From NCBI GenBank assembly GCA_019058275.1, contig JAHLVW010000087.1:1-14283 (forward strand): DNA of 14,283 nt, written 5' to 3'. The position numbers and the translations under genes were made by a program. Positions 1-1,590 of this stretch are shown here, in pieces. The DNA is from Candidatus Heimdallarchaeota archaeon. Lineage in GTDB: Archaea; Asgardarchaeota; Heimdallarchaeia; JABLTI01. The notes beneath the pieces were generated by a model that worked only from the letters and a program-made list of their open reading frames with translations, had not been told where the DNA came from and did not search any database. Numbering within the stretch: the first letter of the stretch is position 1; every line of letters begins with the position of its first letter.

Positions 1-459
1 ATGTAGCATTAAGACGATGAGTAGTTTCTTTAGTTCTTCTGGATAGTTTGGTCCTAATCCCTTTCTTATTCGCAGTTTCTTCCACTTTCGGGGTTCGGGT
101 TGTTTTTGGTAGGGTTCCACTCGATAATTCAGCCATTTTATTTTTCCGAAACCATCACTAGTATTGTTTCCGAGATTGTCCAATGCTAATAAATAGTTGA
201 GCCTTTTTTGTGCTTGTGTTTCTGAGAAAGTAACATAGCTTATTCTTACGAATCCTCGATATGCATAGAGAATTGTTGGTGCTTTTCGCTCTCCCTTCAC
301 AAGTTTCCCAGCAAAACTTCTCCTAGGTTTCTTATTTGATGCTAATTCTCCCACTATACTTATCCAGCACCCCTTCTTCTTGAAGAAAGGTCTTGGGGTA
401 ATGATAGGTGAGAGAAGCTTTCCCTCTAAAGTGTATAGTTTTTTCTCAGTATTCACCAT
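1..459 (-). CDS. Cas5-like RAMP protein, probably fused to a C-terminal HD domain (partial, runs off the left edge; not in ORF track)
   Basis: Manual translation from ATG at 459, overlapping the cas7-like stop (ATGGTGA), gives 153 codons with no stop: MVNTEKKLYTLEGKLLSPIITPRPFF...YRGFVRISYVTFSETQAQKRLNYLLALDNLGNNTSDGFGKIKWLNYRVEP...YPEELKKLLIVLMLH. It has a RAMP beta1 motif (LEGKLLSPI) and a G-rich loop (LGNNTSDGFGKI). The final helix LLIVLMLH resembles the hhhhhHD motif, but the D would lie outside the window. Confidence 0.7.
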   Translation of the reverse strand, partial: MVNTEKKLYTLEGKLLSPIITPRPFFKKKGCWISIVGELASNKKPRRSFAGKLVKGERKAPTILYAYRGFVRISYVTFSETQAQKRLNYLLALDNLGNNTSDGFGKIKWLNYRVEPYQKQPEPRKWKKLRIRKGLGPNYPEELKKLLIVLMLH

Positions 460-1205
460 GCTTCCATCGCTTCCTCTAATTGCTTCCAAAGGTTTCGTTC
501 TTTTTCTTCTTGGATTATTTTCCCGTTCTTACTTATTGTCCTTGTTCGTATGATTTCTTGAAGAATGATTTCTTTCAGTTCTAATCTTCCTGAACCGTTG
601 TTGACGCTTCCTCCCAGTCCTAGTTCTGGCATGTAGAGGATTGCTTTTAGAAGATAACCTAGTTCTTCTTTTGTTAGTTCCTCCCCTAATTCAATGATGA
701 ATGTAAATTCCCCTGCGATGTATCGTTCCCCAAAATCTTGAATGCTTTTCTTCGAGCCTTGCATTAGTGCGTTTCTTGTTTCGGTTGCTATTTGCACTTT
801 CTGTGCGCCTTCGTGTTTTCCTTTCGCTTTCACCGAGATTATTATGACTGGTTCGAATTTTATTTTCGATGGTTTTTGTATTGATCCCATTATTCTGTGT
901 TGTATACACTCATTCTCTGGGTAACAGGCTGCTTTTGGGTGGAATCCTTCTGGGAGGAGGTTTTCACCACTCTGGGTTTTTTCTTTATCTGAGCTGTGAC
1001 AGACTTCTACTCCCTTTTGCTTTGCTATGTTCATCATTGCGTGGTTGACTAGTCCACGGATTCCTTTCACGAGGTATTTTTTCCCTTCTTTCCCGTTCTC
1101 TATTAAGAGGAAATTGTTTGTTTTCCCCACTTTAGATACAATTAAAAATAAAACATTAATAACTGTAATGAATAATGATACCCATGACCCAATTATAGTT
1201 GCCAT
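453..1205 (-). CDS. Cas7-like (Csm3/type III-like) RAMP protein; N-terminal ~25 aa atypical
   Basis: KYLVKGIRGLVNHAM resembles Csm3 PYIPGSSLKGKLRSL. Cys/His cluster C69...C94...C100xxH103 is followed by RIMGS (cf. CxxCRLFGS). Thumb TETRNAL...ERYIAGEFTF and C-terminal G-rich loop LGGSVNNGSGRL are present. Confidence 0.8.
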   Translation of the reverse strand: MATIIGSWVSLFITVINVLFLIVSKVGKTNNFLLIENGKEGKKYLVKGIRGLVNHAMMNIAKQKGVEVCHSSDKEKTQSGENLLPEGFHPKAACYPENECIQHRIMGSIQKPSKIKFEPVIIISVKAKGKHEGAQKVQIATETRNALMQGSKKSIQDFGERYIAGEFTFIIELGEELTKEELGYLLKAILYMPELGLGGSVNNGSGRLELKEIILQEIIRTRTISKNGKIIQEEKERNLWKQLEEAMEAW

Positions 1206-1318
1206 ATGTTTTCCAAATTCCCTATTTGCTTTATCATTTTTGTCCCAAATTCTTAGAACCTTTTCTCTTGTCTCATTTTAGCTTTTTCTGAATCTTTATC
1301 AATGCTCTCAGTTTTCAT
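1131..1318 (-). pseudogene. Probable remnant of a small membrane-protein gene, frameshifted and fused in frame to the cas7-like ORF
   Basis: ATG at 1318 gives MKTESIDKDSEKAK. Restoring one A in the run at 1276-1279 continues NETREKVLRIWDKNDKANREFGKHMATIIGSWVSLFITVINVLFLIVSK, which ends in a TM-like helix. Base composition shifts near 1130. Confidence 0.4.
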
Positions 1319-1339
1319 AACCTTTTCCCCAAACACATA

Positions 1340-1496
1340 GCTTAAGCTCTATTTTAAAAAACATTTCTCTAATCAATTGTTTATTAATATTTAAATTTTC
1401 AATCCTTGTTTTTTTTAAATATTTCATTTGCTATACATAGTCGTAAATCTTCTCTTTTCTCCCATAGTTTTTCTATTGCTTTTGAACCTTTCTTGA
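1340..1496. promoter_or_regulatory. AT-rich intergenic segment; candidate array leader and/or promoter for the minus-strand genes
   Basis: Non-coding and very AT-rich, with TATA-like words TTTAAA at 1390-1395 and TTTAAATA at 1414-1421. Confidence 0.3.
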
Positions 1497-1590
1497 CTGT
1501 ATTTTTCACTTATATAGCTGCTTACCTTATTATTTTGTCCTTTTCTTTATGCTAAACAAACCTGTATTTTTCACTTATATAGCTGCTTAC
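1497..1590. CRISPR. Minimal CRISPR-like array: two identical 29-nt repeats and one 36-nt spacer
   Basis: CTGTATTTTTCACTTATATAGCTGCTTAC occurs exactly at 1497-1525 and 1562-1590, with different flanking bases on both sides. The spacer is 1526-1561 (CTTATTATTTTGTCCTTTTCTTTATGCTAAACAAAC). Lengths are CRISPR-typical and the array lies ~290 nt from a cas7-like gene. Only two repeats are present, so a simple duplication is not excluded. Confidence 0.6.

Follow-up and report, generated by a model that had tools for sequence, protein, structure and literature searches.

Array-less derivatives of CRISPR systems have been described in Asgard archaea under the name ARAMP (Asgard RAMP; Makarova et al, 2020, as summarized in PMC8730458 and PMC12669027). 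The descriptions given in these two summaries name HNH and PD-(D/E)xK nucleases, and neither a Cas5-fused HD domain nor a LAGLIDADG protein is named in them. We analyzed a stretch of 14,283 nucleotides from a Candidatus Heimdallarchaeota archaeon (the window; the first 14,283 bases of contig C82, GenBank JAHLVW010000087.1) in which two minus-strand genes, encoding a Cas7-like protein and a Cas5-like protein fused to an HD domain (Cas5-HD), lie next to an exact repeat–spacer–repeat unit. The initial annotation, made from the letters of the window, had suggested a minimal RNA-guided complex equipped with a one-spacer guide of its own. The locus is instead a decayed ARAMP, a kind of system already known from computational work, and carries a unique CRISPR-sized duplication scar; we are confident that the repeat unit arose after the decay of the island and is not the guide of the module.

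The unit is built from a 29-mer, CTGTATTTTTCACTTATATAGCTGCTTAC, which occurs exactly twice (1497–1525, copy 1, and 1562–1590, copy 2) around a 36-nt spacer-like insert (1526–1561). Its borders are sharp, the bases on both sides of the two copies being different, and the start of cas7 lies 291 nt from the first repeat, so the perfect repeat–spacer–repeat that the initial annotation placed ~290 nt upstream is present as described. An exact pair of 29-mers is beyond chance and was therefore made by a duplication event. On the minus strand, the order is native flank, copy 2, the 36-nt insert, copy 1 and then TCAAGAAAGG. The same unit was recovered in three assemblies or samples (the window; the loci L034 and L035; Logan contigs of runs X1 and X3), and it is therefore no assembly artefact. 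L034 lies on a 2.26-Mb NCBI contig (GCA_019058195.1) on which the exact window Cas7 protein is recorded; this is a better assembly of the same strain and differs from the window at 1 base in 1,700.

What the window has lost is seen by comparison with a sister allele, which we found through members of the Cas7 cluster on a 26,983-nt Logan contig (L065) and a 1.55-Mb NCBI contig (L066). The window is 92% identical to the sister over 2–1127 and 83% identical over 1566–2117 (L065:1746–2297), the latter segment being an orthologous flank with a 129-aa gene (1699–2088, plus strand) that belongs to a multi-copy family without matches in Pfam or PADLOC. In the sister, cas7 is intact (252 aa) and is separated from the orthologue of the 129-aa gene by 7.85 kb that encode, in order, three MazE/AbrB-like small open reading frames (ORFs), a LAGLIDADG/HTH protein (523 aa), proteins of 229, 670 and 241 aa, and a PDDEXK_1 protein that matches Cas4 models. 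At this place, the window has 438 nt (1128–1565) with no counterpart in the sister allele; the window strain has therefore replaced L065:2298–10084 (7,787 nt) by 1128–1565. These limits were refined by BLAST against L065 and L066 and by direct alignment from a first alignment that jumped from 1127 to 1628 with 7,848 letters between. The comparison of alleles indicates that a single replacement event took away 7.85 kb of the island along with the promoter region and first 28 codons of cas7, and brought in 438 nt of foreign DNA.

The replacement has left its mark on the Cas7 protein. Twenty-six new N-terminal codons (1128–1205, minus strand), which encode the hydrophobic stretch MATIIGSWVSLFITVINVLFLIVSKV, stand in place of the 28 codons of strand beta1 and the glycine loop; the sister Cas7 (P0185) starts MIVSRKFRRIKVRVKTPIAKTGNGAILG. 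The new N-terminus was identified by alignment with four paralogues, and homology of cas7 to every paralogue and to the sister allele ends at 1127. The alignment begins at residue 1–2 in all 30 other homologues, from this genome and 15 other genomes of the class, and only at residue 28 in the window protein. AlphaFold2 (AF2) draws the new N-terminus as a strand, on which we do not rely since the stretch is without a homologue in the alignment.

The far end of the 438-nt segment dates the repeat unit. Positions 1420–1509 (minus strand) encode VKNTVKKGSKAIEKLWEKREDLRLCIANEI, the last 30 codons of another gene, here called gene X (...KKGxxAIxKLWxEREDLRPCIANEL*), and are 63% identical to the C-terminus of intact genes in the relatives L021, L022 and L023 (tblastn, E 2.4e-8). 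Because this stretch matches intact C-terminal tails and has in-frame stops just upstream, it is a relic of that gene; an intact distant paralogue lies in the same genome at C105:70873–71664. The native flank and the relic share a 9-nt microhomology, GTGAAAAAT, at their junction, and the end of the scar would have formed by joining the two there. The sister carries GTAAGCAGCTAAATAAGTGAAAAAT once at the same flank position (L065:2273–2297, L066:2099–2123; 24 of 25 bases identical to the window), and beyond it is unrelated to the window. The duplicated sequence thus pre-exists as a single copy for 25 of its 29 bases, which are native flank, whereas its last four bases (ACAG) belong, with the sequence beyond them, to the gene-X relic. 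Copy 1 adjoins the relic and lies partly within it (1497–1509); copy 2 consists of native flank (1566–1590) and of ACAG (1562–1565, minus strand) copied from the gene-X junction. Both copies carry the ACAG junction, and the 29-bp duplication is therefore later than the deletion. After the decay of the island, then, a 29-bp stretch spanning the junction was duplicated around a 36-bp insert to give what looks like a mini-array.

The unit is also unique. In size, it has the direct repeats (23–47 nt) and the unique spacer of similar length that are expected of a CRISPR array (29–36–29), but searches of the rest of the genome, 38 homologous loci and public collections found its repeat nowhere else. 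No third copy of the 29-mer was found in the 4.1-Mb genome with up to five mismatches, the six other Cas7/Cas5-HD modules of this genome do not contain it, and it is absent from public genome, metagenome and viral collections. No repeat–spacer–repeat was found at the 38 homologous loci with their flanks (135 kb). The only ARAMP copy that seemed to own an array thus does not own one, and the family stays array-less.

The initial annotation fared well on the proteins. It had seen two overlapping RAMP genes on the minus strand, and the start of cas5-HD shares 7 nt with the end of cas7, stop codon included (ATGGTGA). The Cas7-like ORF (453–1205, minus strand, 250 aa) matches Pfam RAMPs above the cut-off (29.4 bits, E 1.4e-6; cut-off 22.1) and PADLOC Csm3 (1.8e-5). 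Its Cas7-homologous part comprises residues 27–250 (453–1127, minus strand). The AF2 model, made from a 40-sequence alignment, has a predicted local distance difference test score (pLDDT) of 83, and its top Foldseek matches are type VII Cas7, type IV-A3 Csf2 and Csm3, with E down to 3.5e-8. Only codons 1–153 of the 368 of cas5-HD lie in the window (1–459, minus strand), encoding the Cas5-like RAMP domain and the start of the Cas10-type HD domain, with the LHD motif at the window edge where the contig start cuts the gene; the complete gene (L034:10747–11853, 368 aa, P0065) extends 648 nt further left. In its AF2 model (pLDDT 81.5, last 67 residues disordered), residues 6–123 form a RAMP fold that most resembles Csm4-type and type IV Cas5 chains (Z 7.4–8.6, which the tool itself rates as middling), with a Csm complex chain of Csm4 size, type IV-A Csf chains and a type I-A chain scoring highest (Z 7–8.6). 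Residues 140–297 are helical and align to residues 2–224 of Csm1/Cas10, which are its HD domain (6ifk_A, Z 8.0, 22% identity). The protein also matches PADLOC type IV Cas5 (3.6e-4) and NCBIfam Csf3 (0.012). Seven residues (H153, D154, H161, H183, H184, D201 and H272) are invariant in 45 homologues and fit an HD nuclease. By these models, one protein has a Cas7 fold and the other joins a Cas5-like RAMP to a Cas10-type HD domain, a predicted nuclease, in line with the Cas7 and Cas5-linked HD nuclease that had been proposed. An Asgard-like host had likewise been suggested, and the named homologues of both proteins are almost all from Candidatus Heimdallarchaeota, Thor-, Hermod- or Gerdarchaeota or the 'Asgard group', with one Zixibacteria-labelled record per search; they are labelled hypothetical or 'RAMP superfamily'.

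Judged by the descriptions in the summaries, the window pair is the Cas7 and Cas5-HD of an ARAMP island, an array-less, type III-derived relative of CRISPR systems in Asgard archaea. As far as those summaries describe ARAMP, the likeness lies in the Asgard host, in a much diverged Cas7 and Cas5 nearest to types III and IV, in homologous loci without arrays and perhaps, in the sister allele, in a PD-(D/E)xK Cas4-like nuclease and a distinct, putatively Cas1-like protein beside the pair, given that ARAMP loci have associated nucleases and mostly a distinct Cas1. The window copy departs from ARAMP in having neither the Cas1-like, Cas4-like and LAGLIDADG genes nor the cas7 5′ end, and in bearing, alone among the copies, a two-repeat unit. 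The Cas1 relationship concerns the 670-aa protein of the sister, which is related to an ORF of our genome (C48:25007–26344, E 4e-20) that scores weakly on Pfam Cas1; the 670-aa protein itself gave no direct Cas1 match in Pfam or among PDB sequences (phmmer). Type VII (Cas7, Cas5 and the beta-CASP protein Cas14) and type IV (Csf2/Csf3) effectors provide the best structural matches of the window Cas7 (8z4j, 8yhe, 8rc2) and of the Cas5-like domain (chains 7xfz_B and 8rc2_F). Those systems, however, have arrays, a large subunit or a Cas14 or DinG partner, and Cas6-type processing, whereas the window pair has a Cas10-type HD domain fused to Cas5 and no family-wide array.

Seven Cas7/Cas5-HD pairs are present in this genome, on contigs C82, C86, C89, C25, C88, C11 and C105; those at C88:2017–3815 and C25:8543–10416 are examples of an intact pair. 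A ~530-aa LAGLIDADG/HTH protein is encoded divergently from cas7 in the C89, C25, C88 and C11 modules, and the gene set of the sister allele also follows the C89 module. The initial annotation had left room for a canonical large subunit or a type I-D/III operon to the left of the window. In L034, the left flank holds the end of cas5-HD, a convergent gene for a 1190-aa TSP3/fn3 protein, small genes and an LVIVD beta-propeller gene, and no cas1, cas2, cas4, cas6, cas8 or cas10 lies within 10 kb. The statement of the initial annotation that cas1, cas2, cas6, cas8 and cas10 are missing between the repeats and cas7 and rightward holds throughout the window. The locus is also a natural example of a split ARAMP island, which keeps Cas5-HD intact and most of the cas7 reading frame but no longer has the Cas1-like, Cas4-like and LAGLIDADG genes.

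How did the unit arise? Our overall account, which we consider somewhat better than an even bet, is that of a decayed ARAMP island in which the unit is a post-deletion duplication, most likely made by off-target Cas1–Cas2 integration. Staggered cuts about one repeat length apart would duplicate the target around a spacer-sized insert and so give a 'neo-CRISPR' unit; off-target spacer integration has reportedly been proposed to seed new CRISPR loci (Nivala et al, 2018, as cited in PMC6698737). For the specific step, one off-target full-site spacer integration by the host Cas1–Cas2, we put the chances at about even. The host has two Cas1+Cas2 modules (C26:14898–16090 and C76:1150–2412), and its C26/C68 array has 30-nt repeats with spacers of 36–39 nt plus one of 47 nt, so that the 36-nt insert falls within the spacer range. 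On both strands, the borders of the unit are G or C, and it is at G/C positions, 30 bp apart, that P. furiosus Cas1–Cas2 carries out off-target full-site integration (PMC6698737). Like such off-target or neo-CRISPR units, then, the window unit duplicates pre-existing, non-CRISPR DNA of about repeat length around a spacer-sized foreign insert with G/C borders, in a host with Cas1–Cas2 and an array of similar dimensions. No other isolated non-coding pair of this geometry was found genome-wide (local exact repeats >= 22 nt, gaps <= 400 nt).

Several observations weigh against this account. The duplication is 29 bp and not 30. In vitro, off-target sites tend to resemble repeats (PMC6698737), and the window repeat is unlike those of its host: against the four types of host CRISPR repeat, p was >= 0.5 for three. 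For the fourth, the repeat on C77, a likeness at p 0.014–0.02 before correction for 10 tests was not taken as real. The 36-nt insert has no match in its own genome and no exact 22–24-nt match in viral, metagenome and genome collections, a search that mismatched protospacers would escape, so that neither a protospacer nor a protospacer-adjacent motif supports its origin as a spacer. A single-copy junction allele, the expected intermediate, was not seen. Finally, the remaining cas7 and cas5-HD frames are open with low ratios of nonsynonymous to synonymous divergence (dN/dS 0.11–0.23), so the pair may not be dead. Off-target integration is, besides, read here from one natural locus.

The same facts bear on an origin independent of Cas1, in which the unit is a by-product of the illegitimate recombination or template switching that made the scar and the 36 nt are filler between two junction copies. 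We regard this as possible but distinctly less probable than integration. It would account for the position of the unit exactly at a rearrangement junction on a 9-nt microhomology, and it would require neither a protospacer nor a repeat like those of the host nor a duplication of 30 bp. It leaves the insert without a template, however, since none was found nearby, in the sister allele or elsewhere in the genome. In shuffle tests, the insert resembled neither of the sequences next to it (after copy 1, p 0.31; before copy 2, p 0.10) nor that of the sister (p 0.84), and a simple tandem duplication is accordingly not supported. Nor does recombination explain the fit of 29 + 36 to the host's 30 + 36–39, or the lack of any other such pair in 4.1 Mb. 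If off-target integration by Cas1–Cas2 is the true origin, the locus would be a clean natural case of the birth of a CRISPR unit in an archaeon, datable against a deletion and relevant to the fidelity of adaptation.

A functional role of the unit appears far less probable than either origin. That it is a working one-spacer CRISPR-like array whose transcript guides the Cas7/Cas5-HD pair, as first proposed, is suggested by its geometry beside RAMP genes with open frames and low dN/dS. With dS at 0.22–0.47 between the window and the sister allele, dN/dS ratios of 0.11 (cas7) and 0.23 (cas5-HD) show that purifying selection acted on both genes during most of the divergence of the alleles. The unit is unique to the scar of this strain, however, and missing from the six paralogous modules, the 38 homologous loci and public collections; the related repeat with different spacers that the initial annotation proposed to seek beside homologues, and whose absence there it named as a refutation, is not found at those loci. 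The unit also postdates the loss of the cas7 promoter region, strand beta1 and the glycine loop. Its repeat is a chimera of flank and pseudogene, forms no hairpin beyond shuffles (z −0.3, +0.8), is unlike the host CRISPR repeats, matches no Rfam family and lies in a locus without Cas6. The single spacer is identical in runs X1 and X3, which are two samples from one study. We therefore give a working guide very little credence. Hardly any greater credence is due to duplicated TATA-box or operator elements serving the 129-aa gene or cas7, which we consider improbable although each copy contains TTATATA, a good match to the archaeal TATA box, and although the single native copy of the sister is likewise ~110 nt upstream of the 129-aa gene. 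The sister copy reads TTATTTA and is single, upstream homology with the C33 paralogue of the 129-aa gene is limited to the last 65 nt, which contain a TATA-like box of their own, and selection would not act to keep an exact 29-nt copy that includes four pseudogene bases. Just as remote as the working guide is a combination of readings, in which off-target integration made a CRISPR-like unit de novo and the surviving Cas7/Cas5-HD pair took up its transcript; were this so, the locus would be a natural snapshot of an array-less CRISPR derivative regaining a programmable guide.

If ARAMP has an RNA partner, a conserved hairpin at the 3′ end of cas5-HD is more likely to be it than the repeat unit, as judged from sequence conservation. 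Every module has an element, conserved at the nucleotide level, that overlaps the 3′ end of cas5-HD (here L034:11647–11860, left of the window), and in several copies the conservation runs past the stop codon. Over 15 loci, 6 of the 14 pairs in its first hairpin (alignment A6, columns 4–18 with 66–83) show compensatory changes. It is to this element that the search for an RNA partner is now directed.

Two repeats around one spacer, set apart from the real array, are also found in CreTA-type and other orphan mini-arrays. CreA repeats, however, derive from the host CRISPR repeat and are conserved with cas genes, and neither holds for the window repeat. Genome-wide repeat scans otherwise gave true arrays, coding tandem repeats and, in a 20-mer scan, one degenerate orphan array on C77. 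This mini-array (C77:19611–19777) has three 30-nt repeats related to the C26 repeat (20 of 30 bases identical), the last two separated by a 36-nt spacer, and cas genes are absent for 2 kb around it. It may be either a CreA-like element or the remains of an array, and is a better CreA-type candidate than the unit in the window.

The source metagenome-assembled genome (MAG) comprises 4.1 Mb in 118 contigs and is 93% complete and 6.8% contaminated. Window 1–895 overlaps C86:1–894 with 91% identity over 894 nt, and both contigs stop at the overlap edges. The differences of C86 from the window agree in position and letter with the variant in other sediment runs, and for this reason C86 is, by sequence, the sister-strain allele binned into the same MAG. 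That one MAG holds both alleles suggests a mixture of strains or co-assembly. Of the runs, X1 contains the window allele only, X5 and X6 the other allele only, and X3 both. Among GTDB genus relatives, no close orthologue of the locus was found (best 71%). The cas5-HD gene is intact (368 aa) in the window strain, and its frame is broken in three sister-type assemblies at two different sites, which may be real or an assembly error.

Some features of the lost island and its surroundings deserve mention. The three tandem small ORFs of the sister (L065:9246–9877; 68, 52 and 58 aa) lie between the LAGLIDADG gene and cas7, give weak matches to MazE/AbrB-type SpoVT-AbrB domains and may be regulators of the island. 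The ~520–550-aa LAGLIDADG_3 + HTH_3 family has more than 20 copies in the genome (e.g., C89:101683–103257, C16:34610–36160 and C29:3010–4551), four or five of which divergently adjoin Cas7/Cas5-HD modules; the sister copy is at L065:7608–9179. The family of the 129-aa gene has at least nine copies in the genome, with paralogues on C33, C48, C86, C97, C19 and C24, and the C33 paralogue is 91% identical at the nucleotide level, 65 nt of upstream sequence included. Beyond the 129-aa gene, homology breaks again at window position 2117, where the sister has a stretch like a tRNA 3′ end (GCGTTCGAATCTCATCCTCCGCACCA, L065:1716–1746) that ARAGORN does not call as a tRNA; a tRNA search of the whole window and L065 called nothing. 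An Rfam search of window 1–3000 (E <= 10) gave chance-level snoRNA and riboswitch matches, the CRISPR-DR family being absent, and a sigma-70 scan, unsuited to archaea, gave counts at the level of shuffles. Past position 2117, the following 1.1–1.5 kb differ between the alleles (window 2118–3247), and the right part of the window encodes an Lhr-type helicase, a GTPase, radical SAM, FAD-binding and CCG/Fer4 proteins and small family-less ORFs.

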